A stretch of DNA of 64,000 nt, taken from NCBI GenBank assembly GCA_025832235.1, contig GCA_025832235.1_3649.1. One strand, written 5' to 3'. Source of the stretch: a phage. The translations under genes and the position numbers were made by a program. Under the pieces are notes generated by a model. That model searched no databases. It was not told where the DNA came from and saw only the letters and a list, made by a program, of their open reading frames with translations. Of this stretch, positions 2,871 to 34,951 are shown piece after piece (position 1 is the stretch's first letter; each line of letters starts with the position of its first letter).

Positions 2871-3114
2871 AATTCTTGATTCTAACGTCTACTTGGGACA
2901 ATCCTTCCTGAAGGGAAAGGTCGTTCCTGCGGTATACTTTGAAGGGTTGCCGTGGGATGATCCTGTTCGGCAACATCACAGTTATGTAGGCCACAACGTA
3001 GTGTTTATCTTAGGAGCAGACCTGATCACCGCTGGTGCACCTGAATATTATTTCGGGGAAGAGTCCTATTATGCCTTTGGGGTAGGGTCAGATGCAAATA
3101 TTGTAGAGCTGTGA
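2860..3114 (+). CDS. hypothetical protein, small early family A paralog
   Basis: ORF track; paralog of 2643..2870. Confidence 0.6.
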   Translation: MKVKILDSNVYLGQSFLKGKVVPAVYFEGLPWDDPVRQHHSYVGHNVVFILGADLITAGAPEYYFGEESYYAFGVGSDANIVEL

Positions 3115-3126
3115 TGGGTAACCGTT

Positions 3127-3525
3127 GTGAAAAATAAACTGTTTAAAGTTACAATGAAAATTCGCGGAGCTTGGAGCATAAAGCAAGGGCGTATTCCAGA
3201 ATTTGAGAAAGACTTCTACGTAGTCTCCACCTCGGAGGAGGCTGCATGCTGGCAAGCTGGCTATGCCTATGCAAGAACCTGGTACGAAGGATACCAGACT
3301 GGGGGCTATGACGGAGAAATTATCAGCAAGGGTGTAGAAGAAATTAATGTGTTGACAAGTGAAAAAGTTTTTGTTATAGTGCATCCAGATTCCAGAGTGA
3401 AGCATTACTGGAATGCCAGAACAAAAACTTGGACACCGTTTGCAGATTCTGCTACACCACTTTTAAACCAGAAAGCTCTTGACTCTGTCCCGAGCTATGG
3501 GGTTGTTGAAGAAAAGCTAAACTGA
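3127..3525 (+). CDS. hypothetical protein, family B (HYWNARTKTWTP motif)
   Basis: ORF track; paralogous to 5332..5727 (YYWDVLNNEWTP). Confidence 0.6.
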   Translation: MKNKLFKVTMKIRGAWSIKQGRIPEFEKDFYVVSTSEEAACWQAGYAYARTWYEGYQTGGYDGEIISKGVEEINVLTSEKVFVIVHPDSRVKHYWNARTKTWTPFADSATPLLNQKALDSVPSYGVVEEKLN

Positions 3526-3542
3526 AACAGTGGGGTACTAAC

Positions 3543-3833
3543 ATGATGGATTTAGTTCTGGACACTGATAACACCGGAGCGTTTAAAAAGGATGGTGTAA
3601 CAAGCGTTGACCAATCCTTCCCTGCCAAGATTGACTCAAAATGGACCTACAAGTTTGATGGAGAGATCTTCGCAAATGATGAGAAGGTTGTAGATGCTGC
3701 AGCCATTTTGAACGCTCTAGGGTACGACCCTGTGAATTCTTTGATCAAGGATCCTGTTGAGTTTGCAGAGTATGTTCGAAAAATGGCAGATCTTGCTGTG
3801 GATATTTTAAAAACTATCGACAACAATCTGTAA
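3543..3833 (+). CDS. hypothetical protein
   Basis: ORF track. Confidence 0.55.
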   Translation: MMDLVLDTDNTGAFKKDGVTSVDQSFPAKIDSKWTYKFDGEIFANDEKVVDAAAILNALGYDPVNSLIKDPVEFAEYVRKMADLAVDILKTIDNNL

Positions 3834-3839
3834 AAACTG

Positions 3840-3868
3840 TTGACACAACGCTTCAGATTTAGTATCAT
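3840..3868 (+). promoter_or_regulatory. sigma70-like promoter (TTGACA-N17-TATCAT) for the HPF-like gene
   Basis: TTGACA at 3840-3845, 17-nt spacer, TATCAT at 3863-3868. Confidence 0.5.
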
Positions 3869-3876
3869 TGTTTTCA

Positions 3877-3897
3877 AAGAGGGTTTGGTTCCCTCTT
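3877..3897 (+). promoter_or_regulatory. 5'-UTR stem-loop (AAGAGGG-7-CCCTCTT) followed by CTTT; possible dual terminator/leader hairpin
   Basis: Perfect 7-bp inverted repeat between promoter -10 and SD of 3916 gene. Confidence 0.45.
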
Positions 3898-3915
3898 CTT
3901 TAAAAGGAACACGTT

Positions 3916-4233
3916 ATGCAAATTGAAATCACTGGCAACGTAGAAATCACTGAAGGTATGGTGTCTTTCATTTCCAACAAAATGTCTAAACTGGAGCGTT
4001 TGCACCCCTCTGCCAACTATGCACGTGTGAGTGTAAAAGTTGAAAATGATCACCAGGAAGTTATGGCGTTCATTTTTGACAATTCTGGAAAAGAAGTTAT
4101 TGCCAAGGCTAAAGGTAGTGATGCTTACGAGGCAACTGACCGTATGGTAGATGTTGCAGCACGTCAGCTGGCTAAATGCGGTGGAAAGAAAGGTAAGGGG
4201 AAAGGCAAAGTAAAGATTGACTTTGGAAAATGA
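3916..4233 (+). CDS. hpf: ribosome hibernation-promoting factor / YfiA (RaiA) family homolog
   Basis: 105 aa; MQIEITGNVEITEGM...KLERL...VSVKVE...AKGSDAYEATDRMVDVAARQLAK parallels E. coli HPF (MQLNITGNNVEITEAL...KLEQY...VLKVE...AEGQDMYAAIDGLIDKLARQL) recalled from memory; Lys/Gly-rich tail; own promoter and SD. Confidence 0.75.
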   Translation: MQIEITGNVEITEGMVSFISNKMSKLERLHPSANYARVSVKVENDHQEVMAFIFDNSGKEVIAKAKGSDAYEATDRMVDVAARQLAKCGGKKGKGKGKVKIDFGK

Positions 4234-4242
4234 GGTGCTACA

Positions 4243-4344
4243 ATGGGTGTGATTAAGAAATTAGTCCCAAATGTAGAGATTGCATGCTTTGAAATTATGT
4301 TTGCAATCGCAGTTGTAGTTAATGTGTTAGGTTACGGCTATTAA
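4243..4344 (+). CDS. small hydrophobic peptide (33 aa)
   Basis: Hand-translated MGVIKKLVPNVEIACFEIMFAIAVVVNVLGYGY; GAGGTG SD 6 nt upstream. Confidence 0.35.
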   Translation: MGVIKKLVPNVEIACFEIMFAIAVVVNVLGYGY

Positions 4345-4370
4345 TATCAAATAATTGAGGAGACCTCTAA

Positions 4371-4640
4371 ATGAAAATTAAATTATTCAAAACTGAGCTG
4401 GCAGACAAAAACTGTGGACTGGTTGAAGGCATGATTGTTGAAGCACAACCAGTGGACTATATGAAGGTGGTTCGTGATGCCCTGGGTGAAGGTTTTGATC
4501 TGATGGAGCCAGCTCTGCGAGAAGATGTTATCGAGATGGCTAAAAAGCACACACCTGAAGGTTTGGTGGTGTTTGTTGCACCGGGTAACGGAGAAGAATT
4601 GATTGTAACTCCTGATGTGTATGAGATTGTAGAGGAATAA
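4371..4640 (+). CDS. hypothetical protein (acidic C-terminus ...VYEIVEE)
   Basis: ORF track; SD GAGGAG; C-terminal motif shared with 5000..5332, 5807..6064 and 6065..6415. Confidence 0.6.
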   Translation: MKIKLFKTELADKNCGLVEGMIVEAQPVDYMKVVRDALGEGFDLMEPALREDVIEMAKKHTPEGLVVFVAPGNGEELIVTPDVYEIVEE

Positions 4641-4731
4641 TCCTGCTTGGATTAGCATACTTCCTCGATAAGGAAGATTTGTAATTATTTGTGGGAAAGG
4701 AATCCCAATCTCTTACCAGAGGTGATACTAT

Positions 4732-4995
4732 ATGATTGTTTATTTTAAAACTTCAGGTGGATACCCTGATTCTCAAAGCTTGATCGGAAAAACGTGCACA
4801 GCATACTCACCTCTTGATGAGGAGGTAAGCGATATTCTACGAAATATGTATCGGATTGACCCCCAAGAAGCCTTTGATCAAAACCTTGTATTTGTCAAGG
4901 GTTCAGATATGAAGTCTTTGGGAGCATTCCCTGAAGCAGATGATGATGCCGTTTATTCGTTCATGACTCCTTTTGAAGCTATGGTTGTTGGGTGA
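4732..4995 (+). CDS. hypothetical protein
   Basis: ORF track; SD GAGGTG upstream. Confidence 0.55.
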   Translation: MIVYFKTSGGYPDSQSLIGKTCTAYSPLDEEVSDILRNMYRIDPQEAFDQNLVFVKGSDMKSLGAFPEADDDAVYSFMTPFEAMVVG

Positions 4996-4999
4996 TAAT

Positions 5000-5332
5000 A
5001 TGAAAGTACGCTTTATTGGTGAAACAATTCCTGTGCATCTCCGGTCTCCTGAGGATTCTGCAGATCTTGCATCTCAAAAGGCGAGAGGTTATGATAAGAA
5101 AGTAACCTCAACCGATGTAGTGCTTGAGGCTACCAGTCTACCTGACCCTGCTGCATTCTTTAATCATTATGGGTACTATTTCAGCAATCTGATGAATATC
5201 GGTGAGCTTGTGTTTATTAGTGGTGGAGAGATTGTTAGCAAGCTTGGCGGCGATCCAGATGTCTTTCATGAAACCTGTCCTTTTGCATTTGTGGTAGGTT
5301 CAGATGTGGAAGTTATTGAGGAGGTGCGGTAA
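5000..5332 (+). CDS. hypothetical protein (C-terminal ...VGSDVEVIEEVR)
   Basis: ORF track 4973..5332; in-frame ATG at 5000 avoids overlap with upstream gene. Confidence 0.5.
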   Translation: MKVRFIGETIPVHLRSPEDSADLASQKARGYDKKVTSTDVVLEATSLPDPAAFFNHYGYYFSNLMNIGELVFISGGEIVSKLGGDPDVFHETCPFAFVVGSDVEVIEEVR

Positions 5333-5727
5333 TGGTAAGCCTATACCGTGTTGAGTATAGCTCAGATACTGTATACAACGTAAGAAGCAAAGATCGCAGC
5401 GACAGAGTGCAAGAAATGTATGTTCTTGCCGACAGTCCGTTATCTGCAGCGTTCAAGGCAGGGGCTCTTGCATCTCGTTGGAAATTTGAAGGGGGATCTT
5501 TCTATGAAGAAACCCTTGAAGATTCTGTTGTTATTTCTTCTGTAGAGGTTTCAGACGACTACGAAGGGAAAAAGTTCGTAATGCGGCACCCACACAGCAA
5601 CATTGCGTACTACTGGGATGTTCTGAACAACGAGTGGACCCCAGATCTTCAGAAGGCTACTGTGCTAACACCGTTTTTGGCAGATAAGTTCCCACCAGAA
5701 GGTAATTTATCCGCACTGTTTCAGTAA
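5332..5727 (+). CDS. hypothetical protein, family B paralog (YYWDVLNNEWTP)
   Basis: ORF track; paralog of 3127..3525. Confidence 0.6.
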   Translation: MVSLYRVEYSSDTVYNVRSKDRSDRVQEMYVLADSPLSAAFKAGALASRWKFEGGSFYEETLEDSVVISSVEVSDDYEGKKFVMRHPHSNIAYYWDVLNNEWTPDLQKATVLTPFLADKFPPEGNLSALFQ

Positions 5728-5745
5728 TTTTCTTGCACACAGGTG

Positions 5746-5776
5746 TTGACAACGCCAACCCTGTGTGAAATAATAC
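5746..5776 (+). promoter_or_regulatory. sigma70-like promoter with -35 TTGACA embedded between an 8-bp inverted repeat (CACACAGG/CCTGTGTG)
   Basis: TTGACA 5746-5751; AT-rich -10 region AATAATAC 5769-5776; IR arms 5736-5743 and 5760-5767. Confidence 0.45.
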
Positions 5777-5806
5777 CTTCATCTTAACAAGACAGGAGAC
5801 CGATTG

Positions 5807-6064
5807 ATGAAGATTAAATTGAAAAACCTTGAAACGGCAGAGATTCAGGACGGTGTTGATTTCCGTTCTAAAGATGGTGACATCTTAGAGGTAAATATTC
5901 CAACCTACGAGCTGATTAAAGGTTTTGGCAACGTTCCGGAAGAGGATATTACAGAAATTCTTATGATGTTGATTCTTGACGGAACTGTGTTTGTAGGTGA
6001 AGGTGAGAACGCTATTGCAATCCCAGGCCATTTTTATGAAGTAGTTGACGAAGAGGTGCTGTAA
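5807..6064 (+). CDS. hypothetical protein (C-terminal ...FYEVVDEEVL)
   Basis: ORF track (TTG 5804); ATG 5807 after SD CAGGAGA. Confidence 0.6.
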   Translation: MKIKLKNLETAEIQDGVDFRSKDGDILEVNIPTYELIKGFGNVPEEDITEILMMLILDGTVFVGEGENAIAIPGHFYEVVDEEVL

Positions 6065-6415
6065 ATGAAAGTAGAAATTACCGGTTTTGATGTGAATGTG
6101 GTTCCGGAAGATATTTTAGCTAAACTTCCAGAAGGTTTTGGTAACGGCGTTGTGGTGGATGCTGTTCCTCCTACCAAAGACATTCTGCTGCAGTATGGTG
6201 TAGCAGAGGAAGATGTCGATAAAGTTCTTACAATGATGGCAATCGATCGTGTTGTCGTTGTTAAAGGTCTCGATAATTTTGAGAGTGATCCCCTGATTAT
6301 TCGTGGAGATGACTACAAAATCATCGATAATGAAGGCCAAGAGTTCTATGAACCTTGTGCAGAAGATATTCTTAACTTATTACTGGAAGCAGGTACCGAA
6401 GAGGAGGACGAATAA
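6065..6415 (+). CDS. hypothetical acidic protein
   Basis: ORF track; tightly coupled to neighbours. Confidence 0.6.
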   Translation: MKVEITGFDVNVVPEDILAKLPEGFGNGVVVDAVPPTKDILLQYGVAEEDVDKVLTMMAIDRVVVVKGLDNFESDPLIIRGDDYKIIDNEGQEFYEPCAEDILNLLLEAGTEEEDE

Positions 6416-6744
6416 TGAAGATTGACCCGTTACTGAAGGCTCGTGCAGAAAAAGCGTACACCATTAAGCTGACCAACCTGGTTCCTACTTGTCATCCAGA
6501 TGTAGGTTGGCCTGAAGGTCTGGTAGAGGGGACTGTAACAGCTGCATACCTCCCTAACATCAAATACCTTATGGAAATCTTGGAGCTGGATGAGGAAACG
6601 GCAGAAGAGTTCCAGTTGGACATGAAACAAAGTGGGACTCTGGTTATTCACGGGTGGTATAATACTAAAGACGCAGAAGACCCTCTGGTAACTTCTAATC
6701 TGGCATATGAAATCTTAGGGCCTTTGAACCTGGAGGAAGACTAA
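6415..6744 (+). CDS. hypothetical protein
   Basis: ORF track; ATGA overlap with upstream gene. Confidence 0.6.
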   Translation: MKIDPLLKARAEKAYTIKLTNLVPTCHPDVGWPEGLVEGTVTAAYLPNIKYLMEILELDEETAEEFQLDMKQSGTLVIHGWYNTKDAEDPLVTSNLAYEILGPLNLEED

Positions 6745-7031
6745 TGAAAGATCTGGTTAAGATTAAGATTAAAGATACCAATGGAGAACTCAGCCATTTT
6801 GGAATTAATGATGGTGACGAGCTGATCGCACACCTGCCTACCAAGGAGGTTGTAAGCAAAGCAGTTGCCGGAGAAGAAGCTGCAATGCAGGCTGCAGGTG
6901 TGGATGAAAACTATGTAGCTATGTGCATGTGCCGAGATCAGGTTGTTCTGTATAAAGCGTATCGACCAAACGGAGCCACGGAGTGGCTTGTATTCCGACC
7001 CGAAGGATATGAAATCTTAGAGGCACTATGA
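6744..7031 (+). CDS. hypothetical protein
   Basis: ORF track. Confidence 0.6.
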   Translation: MKDLVKIKIKDTNGELSHFGINDGDELIAHLPTKEVVSKAVAGEEAAMQAAGVDENYVAMCMCRDQVVLYKAYRPNGATEWLVFRPEGYEILEAL

Positions 7032-7111
7032 TAAATCTTGCCAAGGTTGCAACGGCACTGTTAATTATTTGCTGGTCAGTAACCTTAACACTGTGTCTTG
7101 TATTTCAGTGA
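7028..7111 (+). CDS. small hydrophobic peptide (27 aa)
   Basis: Hand-translated MINLAKVATALLIICWSVTLTLCLVFQ; ATGA overlap with upstream stop. Confidence 0.3.
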   Translation: MINLAKVATALLIICWSVTLTLCLVFQ

Positions 7112-7120
7112 GGTGCTTGT

Positions 7121-7384
7121 ATGAACATCCTGATGTGGGTTATAGCAGTGGCGTTTGTTGCATGTTTTTGCTGCTGGGTTGCGGTGAGGATTTCTGTAGC
7201 TACCCTTCGGAAGTTGGGGTTCTCAGAATGGGATATTAATATCCTTTCTTTTCGCAATGAAACAATCTCAGCCGCCCTGCTTTGTAAGAAATTTAAGTGG
7301 GAACCTTGTGAGGTCATGAGCTATCTAAGAACAGGCGATATCCCTGAAAGATTTAAAAAAGTTCTTGACGGCAAGGATAAATGA
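7121..7384 (+). CDS. hypothetical membrane protein
   Basis: ORF track; N-terminal TM-like WVIAVAFVACFCCWVAV. Confidence 0.55.
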   Translation: MNILMWVIAVAFVACFCCWVAVRISVATLRKLGFSEWDINILSFRNETISAALLCKKFKWEPCEVMSYLRTGDIPERFKKVLDGKDK

Positions 7385-7437
7385 CAGTATAGTGACTAAC
7401 AAGAGGTGAGGGGGTGACTGATTTTACTGAAGCTTTA

Positions 7438-7554
7438 ATGATGGCCTTGTCTGTTTTAGCGCTATCGGTGTGTTTTGGGGCGTTATTCACATCTCTGGTT
7501 AAAGTTTTACATACAGTATTATTACCCAAGGAGCGCAGTAATGACGAAGATTGA
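7438..7554 (+). CDS. small hydrophobic peptide (38 aa)
   Basis: Hand-translated MMALSVLALSVCFGALFTSLVKVLHTVLLPKERSNDED; overlaps start of 7541 gene. Confidence 0.3.
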   Translation: MMALSVLALSVCFGALFTSLVKVLHTVLLPKERSNDED

Positions 7555-7792
7555 CTTGAATGCTGGTGATCATGTTGTTGTCAAATGCATTGGAGATTAT
7601 CTTGGATTCACAATCGGCAATACTTACGAGGCGGTAGTGGCGAAGGTTTATCATGATAAAGTCCTCAGTCTTGTATTTGACTGTGATGATGACGGAGATG
7701 ACCGTTACGTCTGTGAGGTGCTGGCTCGTGACGATAGTGAAGACCAGAAATTCCTGGTTATTGAACTGAACGGTATTTTTGTAGAACGTTAA
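7541..7792 (+). CDS. hypothetical protein
   Basis: ORF track 7475..7792; ATG 7541 (MTKIDLNAG...) follows AAGGAG. Confidence 0.55.
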   Translation: MTKIDLNAGDHVVVKCIGDYLGFTIGNTYEAVVAKVYHDKVLSLVFDCDDDGDDRYVCEVLARDDSEDQKFLVIELNGIFVER

Positions 7793-7820
7793 TTTAAAAC
7801 AACATAAGGAGACTCTTACT

Positions 7821-8126
7821 ATGGCTAAATCTAAAGTTGAACTGTTCACCTCTCTTCCTTCTGACACTGCAGAACGTGATCGCCTTCGCAAAACAATTGA
7901 AGAACTGGTGGAACTCCAGCTTCAGATTAAAGATTTGAAAGATGCCATCAAGGATATCATTCTTGTTGAGAAGCAGGATCATCTGTATTCTCCTAAATTC
8001 ATCAAATCTTTGGTGGCTACAGAGTTTGATATCCGCTACGAAGCTGAAAAACGTCGCGCTAAGATTGAAGAAGAGGTTGAGCACATGTCTGAGGCAGACA
8101 TTCTGTTCAAACGCTCTGTAGAATAA
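7821..8126 (+). CDS. hypothetical protein (predicted coiled coil)
   Basis: ORF track; SD AAGGAG upstream. Confidence 0.6.
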   Translation: MAKSKVELFTSLPSDTAERDRLRKTIEELVELQLQIKDLKDAIKDIILVEKQDHLYSPKFIKSLVATEFDIRYEAEKRRAKIEEEVEHMSEADILFKRSVE

Positions 8127-8178
8127 TATGGCAGAGGGGCTACGGCCCCTCTTTCACTATTTGCAAAAGGAACCAGCT

Positions 8179-8505
8179 ATGAGAATGCCAATCACTGTGA
8201 AAGAGCTAAATGAACGTGATGCAGGTGGTCTATGGCCTGCACGAAAAATCCGCTGCGTCTATATGAAAGAGAATCTTGAACATCTTGATCAACAGATCAA
8301 GGTCGGTGATATTTTCGAGGTCTTCTATTCCAATCGTCGCAACTGGGAAACCATTCAGCCTTCTGGTTTTGTTCTTGCCAAACTTGACACTGGAGAAGTG
8401 ATTATTCCTGGGTTGGATATTGTCTTCGAAATTATCCAGGAGTGGGATCCGGATAAGATTAGATATGAAGAGTTATTCGGTGAAGGTATTATCAAACCTG
8501 TGTGA
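8179..8505 (+). CDS. hypothetical protein
   Basis: ORF track 8128..8505; ATG 8179 follows AAGGAA. Confidence 0.55.
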   Translation: MRMPITVKELNERDAGGLWPARKIRCVYMKENLEHLDQQIKVGDIFEVFYSNRRNWETIQPSGFVLAKLDTGEVIIPGLDIVFEIIQEWDPDKIRYEELFGEGIIKPV

Positions 8506-30565: not shown

Positions 30566-30969
30566 TGATCAGTCTCCTTCTTGTTAAGTCTGAATACTGC
30601 AATAATAGCATTCCCAAGGTGCAGTGTCAAGTCATTTCCAAGATACCACAGCATTCCACGGTCATCTTTGATGAAAGGGTAGCAATTTGGTGCCTTCTCT
30701 TTAATGAAAGGGTGACAATCTGGTGCTTTCCAGACATTGTACACTTTCCCAACCTGAAAGAAATCAGGCCCTGTTGGGATTTTAGTGCCTGGCCACACTT
30801 GAGATACCTGAACACACTCCACCTGCATAATAACAGGGATAGTCATGGATGTAAATGTTTTTGTTGGTTCTACTACCATAAAAGTCTCCTCTTTGCTCAA
30901 CAACACTTCCATGTGTTGATAGTTTACATTAGTGACAATCACCCCAGTTACGACCACACAAGTATTCAC
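30562..30969 (-). CDS. hypothetical protein
   Basis: ORF track (GTG start overlapping end of polymerase exon 2); true start uncertain. Confidence 0.45.
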   Translation of the reverse strand: MNTCVVVTGVIVTNVNYQHMEVLLSKEETFMVVEPTKTFTSMTIPVIMQVECVQVSQVWPGTKIPTGPDFFQVGKVYNVWKAPDCHPFIKEKAPNCYPFIKDDRGMLWYLGNDLTLHLGNAIIAVFRLNKKETDQ

Positions 30970-31282
30970 CTGTGATCTGGAACGGGACTCCCATCATTTT
31001 AGAAGCTTGCCAGAAGCAATGCACCACCATTTCACCCACAGGGCTCCAGATAAGTTCAAGCTTTCCGTCATCGTTCAGGATAGGATCGTACACCGTGTTT
31101 CCGTCTCTGTCAACCACTTCGTTTCCGTTTTCATCCTTGCGTGCCTTTTTGTACTTATGACCGTCGAACACATGAAGTTTGGCTTCCTGCTCTGCCTTAA
31201 ATGCTTCCAGTTCTTCAATTGTGTCGAAGGTGTACACAGTCTTATACTTCGGTGTGTCAGGCACTTGAAGTTGGTACTCATC
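30929..31282 (-). CDS. DNA polymerase (family A, T7 gene 5-like), exon 2 (C-terminal, begins with the DE of motif C)
   Basis: Translation DEYQLQV...GEYLCGRNWGDCH; C-terminus parallels T7 DNA polymerase ...TEGKMGPNWAICH; no SD or start codon of its own. Confidence 0.7.
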   Translation of the reverse strand, partial: DEYQLQVPDTPKYKTVYTFDTIEELEAFKAEQEAKLHVFDGHKYKKARKDENGNEVVDRDGNTVYDPILNDDGKLELIWSPVGEMVVHCFWQASKMMGVPFQITGEYLCGRNWGDCH

Positions 31283-31558
31283 CAATAGTTCAGGTAGGTC
31301 GTTAAGCTACCCCGCACCATTACGTGCATAGCCATACGTTTTCACGTAGGATCGGACCATCTCATATTCCTATGATAAGCAACCACAGGAATCCTCCCAT
31401 TTCGACCGCACTTGCTGGTCTACTTCCTTTCGGAATGGCCTCTGAGCGTTCGCTCTTTTGAGCGCTTCGTTGCGGATTACCTTGCCATAAGGTTTAGGCT
31501 TCCCGCAGTTAAAGAGGTTATTCGACATAGATTACTCTATGAAGCCACAATGTTATTT
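31283..31558 (-). mobile_element. group I intron (276 nt, ORF-less) in the DNA polymerase gene
   Basis: Splits H|DE of motif C; 5' exon ends in U, intron ends in G; IGS GUGG pairs with exon CCAU; P-like AACUGCGGGAAG (31499-31510), Q-like AAUCCGCA (31471-31478), R-like GCUCAGAGGCCA (31436-31447), S-like GAGAUGGUCC in canonical order; stops in all frames. Confidence 0.7.
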
Positions 31559-34500
31559 ATGGTAATAAATAATACGACGAACACCTTCATCGTACCACCC
31601 ACGCTTCACCATCTGGCGGTGCATGAGTATTCCAACTAAGTCACACAGCGATGCACCACCATTTTGTTGGTATGCATTAAGTAAAGAGTGTTTAGATCTG
31701 GTCCAGATAGCATGACCATCAAAAGAGTAGATAAACTTCTTACCCGTTGCTTCCCAGAATTTCTCCAGATCTTCTTTACGCCCCTTAAGACCAGGGTTGG
31801 CATCCCAGAGTGCATCGATTACCCTTTGTCCCAACTCTGGAGAGATGTCCAGCATATCTGCAACTTTATCTTTTTGTGCCCCATACATAACCCCATACGT
31901 GATAGGTTTACCGTCGTTACGGGAAATCTCCTTGCCTGCTACAGAAGAGTAAGCTTTGGCGTTATTACAGTTACCGCACACTGCCACTTTACCATTCCTT
32001 CTCACAATGATTGCTCCAGAAGGGACGGTAACGCAATAAACCAAAGAACCGCTCACCTCGACAGACTCTTTAGATAGTGTCAGCAACCCTGCTCTCTGTT
32101 TGCTACCAATTGTGATTCTGTGCTGCACGGCACGACCTTTTTTGTGAATCGCCACCGTATTATTCCGTAAACCACACTGAGTAGCCAGCGCAGACACCAC
32201 CTCTACAGATTTCTTCCTGCACTCGGCCTGGGAGTAGTAAGCAACCTTTCCACCTTCGGAAGATACCCACCCGTCCCAGTTAGATAAAGAAGCTATAAAC
32301 AGGTTTTTAGATTCTTTATCAAGGTTCATCAGGTTATAGGTGAAATCCTTATTGTTGTCCAAAAACTCAAATACCCAGGACGGAACGTGGAATTGGAACC
32401 TTCTCGCCAGTAAGCCTCCTTTTGTGGTTTTCCCGCTCTGCTCTACATAACTAAGGCTTAGAGCAGAAAAAGTATCTAAAAGCGTTGCAACTTTTCTTCC
32501 CTTTCCGACCTGAATCCTGCACACGATGCTGCCGTCCTTATTTGTATGCAAGTGCCCATCATCGTGAATAGCAATAAGCAAATTAACCTGGGCAGGAGAT
32601 AAGGTTGTATTCCCATAAAACTCTGCCGCATGGATAAACCTTCTTCCTGAATTAGACCCTTTACCTGCTTTCAGGTCTTTTGCCAAATCTTCAAACAATT
32701 TATTGCTTCTGTGATCCACAGTCAGCATCCTGTGTTGATCTGTAACCATAAAATCCACACTACTGTTGTGGAAATGATACATATCCCCACAATAACTACG
32801 CTTAACGTAATTTAATGGAGTAACAAGGTTCATTGACGAGGTGTTGTGATCGTACTGGAACACTTGTGTTCCCGGATCAAGATCTTCAAACCTCACCCAC
32901 CCTTTCTCCGTGAGAATTTGTGTATCTCCTGAATAACAGTGTGCATCGCCGTTACTTACAACATCGTAATACAGGCCGTTGTCGAACTCAAAGGCACCCC
33001 AAGCCCCGATAAGCTGCTCTAAGTTGGACCCGTCAATACCGATCTCAAAGTATCCTGGAGGAACACCCCACAGACTACGCATCTCTTTACCCATAACCAC
33101 TTTAGGAGATGGTTTAGGCATGTTTGCACAAATACTGTGTTTCTGTCGGGAAGTGTTTGTTAATCCAGAACTTTTAGCAGGAAGCTTATGGTCAATCTTC
33201 AAACGTGGGTGATTAAGAAGACCAGTATCAACCTTATCCTCCTTGATTGGATCAAGGACCGATCTGCGGTTTCGCAATGATAACCACAAGACGATATCTT
33301 TAGCCATCTCTCCGTTCAATTTTTCAAGATTCGGGCATAGGTGTCCAAACGTATCTTTCAGTTGCGGAGAAGTAATAAGTGCCCTAGCTTTTCTACGTAT
33401 TTTCCCGAATACTTCCTTTTTAATCCTTTCGGAGTTAGGAAAGCTTCTGAACTTGTGCACGGTTGTCTGGAACTTAGCATCAGTTTTGTTCCAGAAGTTG
33501 ATAATTAGGTCACAATACTCTGACTCTAAAAGCTCGTCCATATATGCATACACTCGTGCATCAACATCTGCATCAGGTAGAGCTTTCTTCTTGCTGTCTT
33601 TAGTTACATCCTTAGTTCTCCACATTGTCGGAAGCCAACCAGCACTGATCAGGTATCGCTTAATATCGTCCTGATTGCTGATTTTCATAGGTATCTTGCA
33701 GTCAGGCATTCGCTTCTGCTGTAGATCACTTATTGCCTGATCCATTAGCTCTTTAGGTAAAGGTTGTGGTGTGGAGGTGCCCTTGATATAGCCCCTCAAG
33801 AAATCCGCCATCTTATCAGGGTCTTTACAGCCCATCTCTTCACACCATTTTATCCCCATCTTACTGACATCTCCTGTGGAGGTAAATGCTCGCTTAGGAG
33901 GAGCTTTGAATTCTAAAGCACTCATGTCCACAGGGTAGCCAAGCTTGTCTTTTAACCATTTCCAACCATTATTGGAGATTGTCCCATCCTGGTTAAACGG
34001 CTTTTCAGGGAACTTAGGCCGCTGAGACATTGATAACTCTTTTAAAGGAAGTTGTGGTTCAACACGATCAGCGATCTCTTTCATCCACGCATCGCAGCGG
34101 TCACGTAAAGCAATAGCCCCATCTATGTCGAAATACACACCCTGTCGAGCCTGCAGCTCCATCAGGAAATGTTGCAGCATGCCTCGGCGTAATGCATTCT
34201 TCCAGGTAATCTTCTTGAATCCTTTAGGCTTCTCTTTGGCAGGGTCATACATAAAGTTCTGCATGTCAGATTTGCCGTAGAATACACCTTTTGATTCCGC
34301 TACCAACTCTTTCCAGAGCAACTCCTGGATGATAACGTCCTCGAACACACGATCCACATATTTCCACAGCGGAAGATCGCGCCAGTCATCAATTTGAACT
34401 TTCTGGTTACCAAGGGCGTAGCCCCATGCCATAAGGCCGTGAGGACCAACAGGTTGCATTTTCTTAGTAACCGGGTTGAATACAGCGTCCGGACAACCTT

Positions 34501-34951
34501 TTGGTAAAGGGCGATCAGGCCACAAGATTCGGCTCATAGCCAACGTATCAAACAGGTTAACCTGGTGGTCGTTGATAGTCCCCATGCATTTAGGATCACG
34601 GAACATATCAAAATGAATACCGGATAATCTTTCCATTAGCATAAAGTCATAACTGTAGCAGTTATGGCAGTTCAAAGCTGTTGGTGACCAGTCAGAATTG
34701 CCTGTAAGCCAACCTTCCAACTCCGAAAAATCTGCTATGCGAACTTCAAAATCTTTATAAAGAGTTTTCTTTGCCAGAATGAAGTTCTTAGCCTTTTCTA
34801 TATCCTCCTCGGAGTAGTGTGTGCGGTCATTTAGAGGAAGGAACAGCATAAAACGGTTCTTATTCAGCTCTTTAAACAGACCGCAGTGATAATAAAGATC
34901 TGGGTCTTCCAGCAAACCGGATGACTCAAAATCGAAAGACCACATACTCAT
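31559..34951 (-). CDS. DNA polymerase (family A, T7 gene 5-like), exon 1, containing an in-frame intein
   Basis: N-terminal 3'-5' exonuclease motifs (FDFESSG, CHNCYSYD, GPHGLMAWGYALG); motif A IDGSNLEQL; motif B KPITYGVMYGAQK; ends ...RRIIYYH where HDE is expected. Confidence 0.85.
31970..32938 (-). mobile_element. intein (323 aa) with LAGLIDADG-type homing endonuclease domain
   Basis: Block A CYSGDTQILTEKGW, block B LTVDHR, LAGLIDADG-like LLIAIHDDGH and FIASLSNWDGW, C-terminal VYCVTV...VAVCGN followed by +1 Cys; flanking exteins NGDAH|CNNAKAY restore a T7-like NGDIHTKNQIA segment. Confidence 0.75.

Follow-up and report, generated by a model that had tools for sequence, protein, structure and literature searches.

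Group I introns have been described in the polymerase genes of the T7-like phages phiI and W31, where they belong to group IA2 and lie at 'site 881' in the numbering of E. coli Pol I (Bonocora and Shub 2004, summarised in PMC3428280), and in Pectobacterium phage CB7, which carries two spliced introns in its polymerase gene and NrdA and NrdB genes combining an intein with an intron (PMC7344957). Here, a related locus is presented from a stretch of 64,000 nucleotides (nt) of phage DNA (GenBank assembly GCA_025832235.1, contig GCA_025832235.1_3649.1), which is called the window throughout: a gene assigned by its sequence to the family A (T7-like) DNA polymerases of an rV5-like Escherichia myophage, which is interrupted by an intein as well as by a group I intron. 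It is highly probable that two independent homing-type elements have colonised this polymerase and that each removes itself, leaving an intact enzyme of 925 amino acids (aa). Motif C of Pol I is His881-Asp882-Glu883, so site 881 presumably represents the His881|Asp882 boundary, the same H|DE junction as in the window. An intein and a group I intron are also present in the ribonucleotide reductase genes of the Bacillus prophage SPbeta, and genes containing both types of elements are documented in the same phage subfamily as well as elsewhere.

Compared by description with the introns of phiI and W31 (AY769989, AY769990), the locus shares the T7-type family A polymerase as host gene and an IA2-like intron with P7.1 and P7.2 joined by GUA, whereas the known introns carry an HNH open reading frame (ORF) in P6a and reside in podoviruses, and the intron of the window is ORF-less and resides in a 138-kb myovirus. 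CB7 and phiTE (Certrevirus, Vequintavirinae) belong to the same subfamily and exhibit the identical H|DE junction with near-identical P1 and guide sequences, but their intron is longer (~687 nt) and contains an HNH endonuclease, and the polymerase gene of CB7 contains a second intron but no intein. In the annotation of CB7, CB7_51 ends with ...RRIIYYH and UUACCAU|AAGUAACAUUGUGGCUU, CB7_49 resumes with DEYQLEV, and the HNH gene CB7_50 lies in the intron between them; splicing of the CB7 intron has been shown by reverse transcription-PCR and Sanger sequencing of the cDNA (PMC7344957). The NrdA and NrdB genes of CB7 resemble the locus in that one essential gene of DNA metabolism requires RNA and protein splicing, the difference being that the host gene here codes for a DNA polymerase. 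The 276-nt intron itself is present with 100% nt identity in rV5, LL12, and MaxTheCat, which differ from the window by lacking the intein, and MaxTheCat (BASEL collection) has its polymerase annotated as a two-piece join of 3054 nt (2778 + 276).

The locus reveals no new kind of element or mechanism: both the intron and its insertion site were known before, and the intein comes from a widely distributed phage family, for one member of which splicing has been shown experimentally. An earlier note on this DNA, made from the letters only, had regarded an essential gene with two different self-splicing elements as unusual, which was overstated in view of NrdA and NrdB of CB7 and of the intron annotated in MaxTheCat. 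No published description of an intein combined with an intron in a polymerase gene was found, and the polymerase intein at the NGDAH site, like its co-occurrence with the intron, appears to be unreported.

Architecture and identity of the polymerase gene

Matches to the region were found in 136 phage records, the highest-ranking ones being from Escherichia phages of the genus Vequintavirus (94-97% identity), and the source of the window is assigned on this basis to a Vequintavirus (rV5-like) Escherichia phage; rV5-like Vequintavirus are myoviruses with genomes of ~138 kb. The polymerase gene and all its features lie on the minus strand. An ORF of 1132 aa (31553-34951, minus) terminates with ...RRIIYYHK*, and a second ORF in another frame (30929-31285, minus) reads (TTG)DEYQLQ...NWGDCH*. 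Joining the CAU that ends at 31559 to the GAUGAG that starts at 31282, minus the 276 nt from 31283 to 31558, yields one open frame of 1248 codons with the conceptual ligated junction ...UAUUACCAU|GAUGAGUAC..., and taking the 323-aa insert CYSGDT...VAVCGN out of the 1248-aa precursor leaves 925 aa. The coordinates and lengths which the earlier note had given for the intron, the intein insert, and the 925-aa product are all reproduced exactly, and the ORF and frame check bears out its statement that the ORF stops after ...RRIIYYH and that DE restarts 276 nt downstream in another frame. The features are assigned as follows.

30929..34951, minus strand: whole interrupted family A (T7-like) DNA polymerase gene, consisting of N-extein, intein, C-extein, intron, and exon 2 (PHROG 17 and T7 gp5 alignment)
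31559-34951, minus strand: exon 1, total
32939..34951, minus strand: N-extein of exon 1, aa 1-671, with the exonuclease region and motif A IGIDGSNLEQL, ending ...SNGDAH (aligned to T7 gp5 GIDASGLE...ILNGDIH)
31970..32938, minus strand: predicted intein of 323 aa, corresponding to precursor aa 672-994 (missing in rV5, CM1, and EduardKellenberger; family alignment)
32159..32605, minus strand: predicted LAGLIDADG-type homing endonuclease domain in the intein, approximately intein aa 112-260 (AF2 model, Foldseek, Pfam matches of relatives)
31559..31969, minus strand: C-extein of exon 1, from the +1 residue Cys995 to His1131, with motif B KPITYGVMYGAQK, ending ...RRIIYYH with the His of motif C (PHROG 8888 positions 49-185)
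31283..31558, minus strand: predicted group I intron, 276 nt, no ORF, IA2-like (Rfam RF00028, covariation, intron-less relatives, MaxTheCat join)
31545..31562, minus strand: P1 helix, in which exon CCAU and intron AA (31562-31557) pair with the guide UUGUGG (31550-31545) (Rfam alignment and fold)
31355..31440, minus strand: catalytic core of the intron, with the P7 pseudoknot of GGCCA (31440-31436) and UGGUC (31359-31355)
31435-31424 (P7.1), GUA linker, 31420-31404 (P7.2), 3' strand of P3, and P8, minus strand: elements inside P7 of the intron
30929..31282, minus strand: exon 2, 117 aa and stop, DEYQLQ...GEYLCGRNWGDCH, supplying the Asp and Glu of motif C and a T7-like C-terminal His (PHROG 8888 positions 186-295)

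As the earlier note had proposed for the extein-joined sequence, the spliced and intein-less product aligns continuously to residues 469-658 of T7 gp5 (E = 1.6e-13). The alignment covers GIDASGLE, K..Y.G..YG, NGDIH|TKNQ, and VHDEIQV (versus YHDEYQL here) and rises from 37 to 54.5 bits after both removals; motifs A, B, and C are all aligned, and the catalytic Asp and Glu are present. PHROG 17 (DNA polymerase) is matched with E = 3.9e-84, and Pfam DNA_pol_A scores 17.7 bits on the unspliced precursor, below its cut-off of 34.3. The gene represents the sole polymerase ORF of at least 250 aa within the window.

Natural alleles without each of the elements match the predicted junctions exactly. The tail of exon 1 and exon 2 correspond to the directly continuous positions 49-185 and 186-295 of the polymerase profile PHROG 8888 (295 positions), and a 176-aa peptide spanning the predicted junction is encoded by one unbroken 528-nt piece in intron-less Vequintavirus such as EduardKellenberger, JES2013, A6-1, nom, rV5_ev168, MiataMamis, and ECP26, with 97-99.4% identity. 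A 54-nt probe of the ligated junction is contiguous in 142 records, namely ~60 Vequintavirus-like ones and 82 from Vibrio phages, ICP1 and relatives. EduardKellenberger, which contains neither intein nor intron, has a polymerase coding sequence (CDS) of 2778 nt for 925 aa, which aligns without gaps to the conceptual product and differs from it in 9 aa and 70 nt. Together with the junctions and the T7 gp5 alignment, this 925-aa allele supports the earlier claim that RNA and protein splicing concern the same gene. The 54-nt sequence at the intron site is ~86% identical at the nt level in the ICP1 phages of Vibrio cholerae, whereas the proteins share only ~37% identity over the last 176 aa; judged from this comparison, the homing target appears to be an unusually conserved stretch of DNA.

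The group I intron and its relatives at the same site

The gap between the His and the Asp of motif C (HDE) is predicted to be a group I intron. The Rfam model RF00028 (group I intron) matches 31333-31568(-) from 1 to 253, i.e., in full, with 64.7 bits (gathering score 50, E = 3.8e-15), well outside what chance would give; no other Rfam match is present anywhere in the 64-kb window, even at E <= 0.1, and a tRNA search of the window gave none. At the 5' splice site, U31559 pairs with G31548, forming the U.G wobble of P1, and the terminal G (omega G) is located at 31283 directly before GAUGAG, in a UGG|AUGAG context that is invariant in the alignment of same-site introns. The opening codons of the intron, AAA UAA, close the reading frame of exon 1. 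By eye, we infer a P10 helix composed of GAUG from exon 2 and CAUU from the guide region. The stretch of P7.1 and P7.2 reads UUCCGAAAGGAA-GUA-GACCAGCAAGUGCGGUC, with an invariant GUAG and a covarying P7.2, and P7.1 is missing from both Vibrio versions of the intron (K470 and VpB-34). According to PMC3428280, subgroup IA2 is recognised by two additional helices, P7.1 and P7.2, which are inserted between P7 and P3' and connected by a G-U-A linker; by its GUA-linked P7.1/P7.2, the intron is IA2-like.

The 276-nt sequence is 100% identical in ~23 records, some of them intein-less. Diverged introns at the same site are found in JLBYU08 (329 nt), JEP1 (328 nt), the Avunavirus 19-1-2 (317 nt), and the Vibrio phages K470 (254 nt) and VpB-34 (252 nt), each of which exceeds the threshold of RF00028 with a score of 70-91 bits. 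Introns with an HNH gene are present in CM1 and APECc02, where they measure 842 nt, and in phiTE, where the length is 687 nt. In all these cases, HNH-carrying or not, exon 1 ends with ...(Y/S)YH and UUACCAU, and exon 2, in another frame, starts with DE(Y/I/F); H|DE stays constant as the splice position even between strongly diverged exons. The conservation of the RNA structure was assessed with six ORF-less introns of 66-100% identity (the window/rV5 type, JLBYU08, JEP1, Avunavirus 19-1-2, K470, and VpB-34), onto which a hand-curated structure of 59 pairs, comprising P1-P9.2 and the P7 pseudoknot, was projected. Standard pairs occupy 98.6% of the cells, and 25 of the 59 pairs show compensatory double changes. 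None of 500 shuffles attained the observed value on four of the five measures (15 of 500 did so for further pair types), and only 35-40% were paired in a control with partners slid by 1-3 columns. All six pairs of P1 are invariant in the six introns, whereas P2, P3, P4, P6, P7, P7.2, P8, P9, P9.1, and P9.2 covary, P7 with one compensatory change. The group I intron claimed for the polymerase gene in the earlier note is upheld by the Rfam score, the U.G pair, the omega G, the covariation, and the intron-less alleles.

Parts of the intron are also found, with 73-85% identity, in introns located in other genes. Positions 8-148 match within the terminase large subunit gene of Av-05, and the last ~80 nt (P9-P9.2) near a split nrdB, as in the nrdB region of Vibrio phage 1.161.O; Pseudomonas and Pseudaeromonas phages are also among the matches. 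This suggests a modular exchange between introns of different genes.

Two small ORFs overlap the intron, one of 52 aa fully within it (31370-31528, minus) and one of 86 aa, out of frame, across its boundary with exon 2 (31075-31335, minus). They match in size and position the 'hypothetical proteins' gp222 and gp221 of the RefSeq genome of rV5 (3105-3263 and 3298-3558 of the rV5 stretch) and are almost certainly spurious.

The intein, its endonuclease domain, and its family

The 323-aa insert in exon 1 is predicted to be an intein with a homing endonuclease domain. The intein-less phages rV5 and CM1 read NGDAH|QNNAEAYTKVAGREVS, the intein-bearing alleles NGDAH|323 aa|CNNAKAYSSVAGKEIS, and the empty site of EduardKellenberger ...GACGCACAC|CAAAACAATGCTGAGG...; exactly the 323 aa between NGDAH and (Q/C)NNA are missing in rV5, CM1, and EduardKellenberger, and the +1 Cys is found only together with the insert. 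The recognisable intein residues are Cys1, block B VTDQH (T66, H69), block F VYCVTVPSG (C302), and the end ...VCGN (N323), followed by the +1 Cys. In an alignment of nine family members covering seven different host proteins, C1, H69, D127, D222, C302, V305, G322, and N323 are invariant. The absence from orthologues, the intact splicing residues, and the predicted endonuclease fold all agree with the intein-like insert of the earlier note.

A tblastn search of 50,697 phage records retrieved this polymerase intein (92-99% identity) from seven, all of them Vequintavirus polymerases and free of frameshifts, and relatives of less than 60% identity from a further 391. The relatives listed are full-length with 25-30% identity and reside in NrdA, NrdB, nicotinamide phosphoribosyltransferase (NAMPT), PhoH, thymidylate synthase (ThyA), and Pol I (at other sites); a profile search added ClpX-like, ankyrin-repeat, peptidase M15, and prohead protease proteins as hosts. 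A search of 5.8 billion proteins with the intein alone gave no match with E <= 0.001, but GenBank phage proteins of 98-99% identity exist, so that the collection seems to lack them or the word filter missed them. Pfam Intein_splicing is matched by two of the nine family members (best E = 7e-7).

The intein contains two LAGLIDADG motifs, LIAIHDDGHL (D127) and FIASLSNWDGW (D222). In the AlphaFold (AF2) model, two alpha-beta-beta-alpha-beta-beta-alpha repeats are apparent, with helices 115-127 and 208-222 each followed by beta-beta-alpha-beta-beta and with predicted local distance difference test (pLDDT) scores of ~81-95 over residues 111-220, except for one block at 65, and lower ones beyond. 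Foldseek searches with the model retrieved PI-SceI (4e-9) and I-DmoI (~1e-4), as well as PI-TkoII, I-SceI, and the AceL NrdHF intein, and four of the nine family members, the window copy not among them, match Pfam LAGLIDADG_3. The model thus predicts a double-motif LAGLIDADG endonuclease fold for the intein, which may well be accompanied by the corresponding activity.

Two known inteins are of help in placing the splicing domain. The intein in the RDF of Mycobacterium phage Bethlehem aligns end to end with that of the window (E = 9e-12) and shares Cys1, the block F Cys (VWCLRVP), the GN end (...TGN), and the two LAGLIDADG motifs, the predicted fold of the window intein resembling those of I-DmoI and of PI-SceI, the structural archetype; the Bethlehem intein differs in its host protein and site, the present intein being located in a polymerase directly after NGDAH, and the identity is only ~21-30%. 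The closest solved structure by sequence is the AceL NrdHF class 3 split intein (PDB 6zgq, PMC7891396), which was matched by the family profile with E = 5e-8. The likeness lies in position N3:12, which is Met, in C2:4, which is Cys, and in the lack of His at C1:6, the equivalents here being M71, C302, and G322, whereas AceL NrdHF has Ala1, is naturally split, and lacks an endonuclease, and the intein in the window has an invariant Cys1, is contiguous, and contains an endonuclease domain. In place of the class 3 triplet Trp-Cys-Thr (B:12, F:4, G:5), the intein has Met71-Cys302-Cys321, and the penultimate His (G:6) is replaced by Gly322, which is invariant in all nine family members and thus represents a family trait rather than decay. 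A penultimate His is common in inteins, but not obligatory. Class 1 inteins of mycobacteriophages often have Gly at this position, and the Bethlehem RDF intein is reported to splice, a change of its Gly to His leading to a build-up of the precursor (PMC5050341); a Cys at F:4 is also found in class 1 inteins (PMC4031507). A class 3 assignment, considered because of the best PDB relative and the block F Cys, was rejected in view of the invariant Cys1, the lack of Trp at B:12, and the occurrence of F:4 Cys in class 1. By its residues, the intein is best filed under class 1, in a known phage lineage, and C302 may play a class-3-like role.

Relatives of the intein also occur in other settings. Vibrio phage 1.161.O contains one in a 930-aa 'hint domain protein' (3473-8404 of its stretch), which is another protein located beside nrdB and does not represent the NGDAH site of a polymerase; the adjacent gene for the small subunit of ribonucleotide reductase is split in two by a 167-aa ORF, so this is another locus with an intein beside a probable intron. 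In Proteus phage RS1pmA, the relative lies in a gene adjoining the polymerase gene, not in the polymerase itself. The family A Pol I of the gut phage DP SC_2_H4_2017 carries two inteins, after LIHG and after ALRQ, the first including an HNH-type-looking segment (by eye), and its DIH motif is uninterrupted. Several sites in family A polymerases are thus used by inteins.

Proposed splicing, alternative explanations, and spread of the elements

According to the proposed course of events, an external guanosine would attack after the U of the U.G pair in P1 (CCAU|AAAUAA), and the freed exon 1 would then attack after the terminal G (CUAUUG|GAUGAG), restoring ...YYH-DEY.... The ligated RNA would be translated to the 1248-aa precursor with the intein directly after NGDAH, between motifs A and B, and Cys1, the +1 Cys, and the terminal Asn would allow standard class 1 protein splicing with release of the ~36-kDa intein. 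In mixed infections, the intein endonuclease would cut intein-less alleles, and the intein would be copied in, dragging flanking sequence along. The ORF-less intron would spread by recombination or with the help in trans of HNH endonucleases, which relatives encode inside the intron or directly downstream of the gene.

The distribution of the elements shows that intein and intron assort independently, since presence and absence are mixed. The intein occurs with the 276-nt intron in YP-6, EPFV3-03/2025, and 241Ecol014PP, with the 328-nt intron variant in JEP1, without intron in NHEP1, and probably with the 842-nt HNH intron in Mangalyan and WM, as deduced from a match ~566 nt longer. Genomes with the intron only (rV5, LL12) and empty ones (EduardKellenberger, Murica) are common, so that all four combinations are present among genomes of ~96-97% identity, with at least four states at the intron site. 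The differences from the empty allele are clustered at the intein site, where the 27 nt directly downstream contain 15 substitutions and the 36 nt on the upstream side contain 5, and taper by ~+220 to a background of 26 in ~1780 nt (~1.5%). Such a pattern would be expected from co-conversion with a diverged donor or from loss of the endonuclease target.

In 241Ecol014PP (4693-5340) and in the Vibrio phages K470 (1094 on) and VpB-34 (1089 on), exon 2 is directly followed by a free-standing HNH endonuclease gene, the intron being ORF-less; no HNH gene follows exon 2 in the window itself. This arrangement is reminiscent of 'collaborative homing', in which an ORF-less intron is mobilised by an endonuclease encoded next to it and which has reportedly been described for the psbA gene of cyanophages.

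Several points weigh against the proposal of two self-removing homing elements. We infer both RNA and protein splicing in this phage as well as the endonuclease activity, in the case of protein splicing from the intact residues, the essential host gene, the seven viable phage isolates, and the family member reported to splice. The intron carries no endonuclease gene, and its mode of spread is a conjecture. The covariation comes from only six distinct sequences, the ~23 records being identical, and the structure was derived from one of these six. As to the intein, Hint_2 scores 23.6 bits against a Pfam cut-off of 28.4, a Pfam scan of the window intein alone gives no LAGLIDADG match, and the structural model is moderate, with a mean pLDDT of 69 and parts of the Hint domain below 50. 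Finally, splicing could be slowed or altered by the penultimate Gly, a position usually taken by His, and by the Cys of block F, where Asp is the most frequent residue.

If the gap stayed in the RNA, the two polypeptides of 1132 and ~117 aa might assemble non-covalently, as reported for Aeh1 NrdA split by mobE. Many GenBank records indeed annotate two separate CDSs, a TTG codon stands directly before exon 2, and non-splicing intervening sequences with split proteins are known from phages (PMC7344957). However, this arrangement is very unlikely, since it is the catalytic HDE triad that is broken and the gap is filled by an entire ribozyme that passes the Rfam threshold and shows strong covariation, which would not persist if unused; moreover, the homologous intron of CB7 is spliced in vivo. 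The frame of exon 2 has a TAG nine codons upstream, the one codon that could serve as its start is the TTG formed by the last three bases of the intron, and none of GGAG, GAGG, AGGA, or AAGG is present in the 25 nt preceding it, so the absence of a Shine-Dalgarno sequence and a regular start codon asserted by the earlier note holds. Separate translation of exon 2 was rejected for the lack of a ribosome-binding site and start codon and for the position of the break within HDE.

That the insert is decayed or non-splicing, for example a domesticated endonuclease domain retained in the polymerase, or that the gene is a pseudogene here, likewise has very little probability. A Gly-Asn intein in ClpP of Chlamydomonas reportedly splices poorly. 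This precedent (cited in PMC4031507), the penultimate Gly instead of His, and the sub-threshold Pfam Hint score would agree with decay, but Gly-Asn is conserved in all nine family members from seven host proteins and in the Bethlehem RDF intein, where the replacement of Gly by His causes precursor accumulation, and the nucleophiles and block B residues are all intact. Furthermore, seven phages that propagate and were isolated independently carry the insert, with 92-99% identity and no frameshifts, in an essential enzyme, where it separates motif A from motif B, and the window contains no other polymerase ORF of at least 250 aa. An assembly or recombination artefact is extremely unlikely, as YP-6, EPFV3-03/2025, and 241Ecol014PP, which are independent records of Chinese, Polish, and other origin, have the same architecture and relative coordinates; no evidence in favour of an artefact was found in the analysis. 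An extension of the proposal of two self-removing elements, which we consider rather improbable, is that the two might be more than purely selfish passengers. The intein might splice via a hybrid or redox-gated route, rendering the maturation of the polymerase conditional, and the ORF-less intron could be mobilised in trans by the free-standing HNH endonucleases which some relatives encode downstream of the polymerase gene. The idea of a hybrid mechanism arises because the active site of this phage-wide intein lineage, with Cys1, F:4 Cys, B:12 Met, and a penultimate residue other than His, agrees with that of the one solved relative, which follows the class 3 route via a branched thioester.

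The main value of the findings is practical, since many Vequintavirus records, including the RefSeq type genome of rV5, split an essential gene into at least two CDSs that are treated as unrelated. Terminase introns are the only ones described in the rV5 genome paper, which refers to the polymerase as a 775-aa protein, and RefSeq rV5 wrongly annotates separate genes, with small ORFs called within the intron. The polymerase CDS of rV5 starts at Met35 and loses the N-terminal MSMWSFDFESSG, a stretch which by eye contains the D-x-E motif of Exo I. In the seven intein-bearing records, the 1132-aa precursor is labelled as ordinary polymerase or hypothetical protein, and the intein is not named in the product names or feature tables examined. 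Annotation, taxonomy, and polymerase phylogenies of phages that are under development for the biocontrol of E. coli O157 would all benefit from a correct model with a two-exon join and an annotated intein. The four presence/absence combinations also provide a natural experiment for homing, co-conversion, and interference between neighbouring mobile elements.

Upstream of the polymerase gene lies an ORF of 692 aa, and close relatives have its counterpart annotated as DNA primase/helicase. A set of sixteen records that bear the name 'Campylobacter phage' (MG0656xx, host Campylobacter jejuni) are 96-97% identical to the E. coli Vequintavirus over the region, and their host labels look doubtful.

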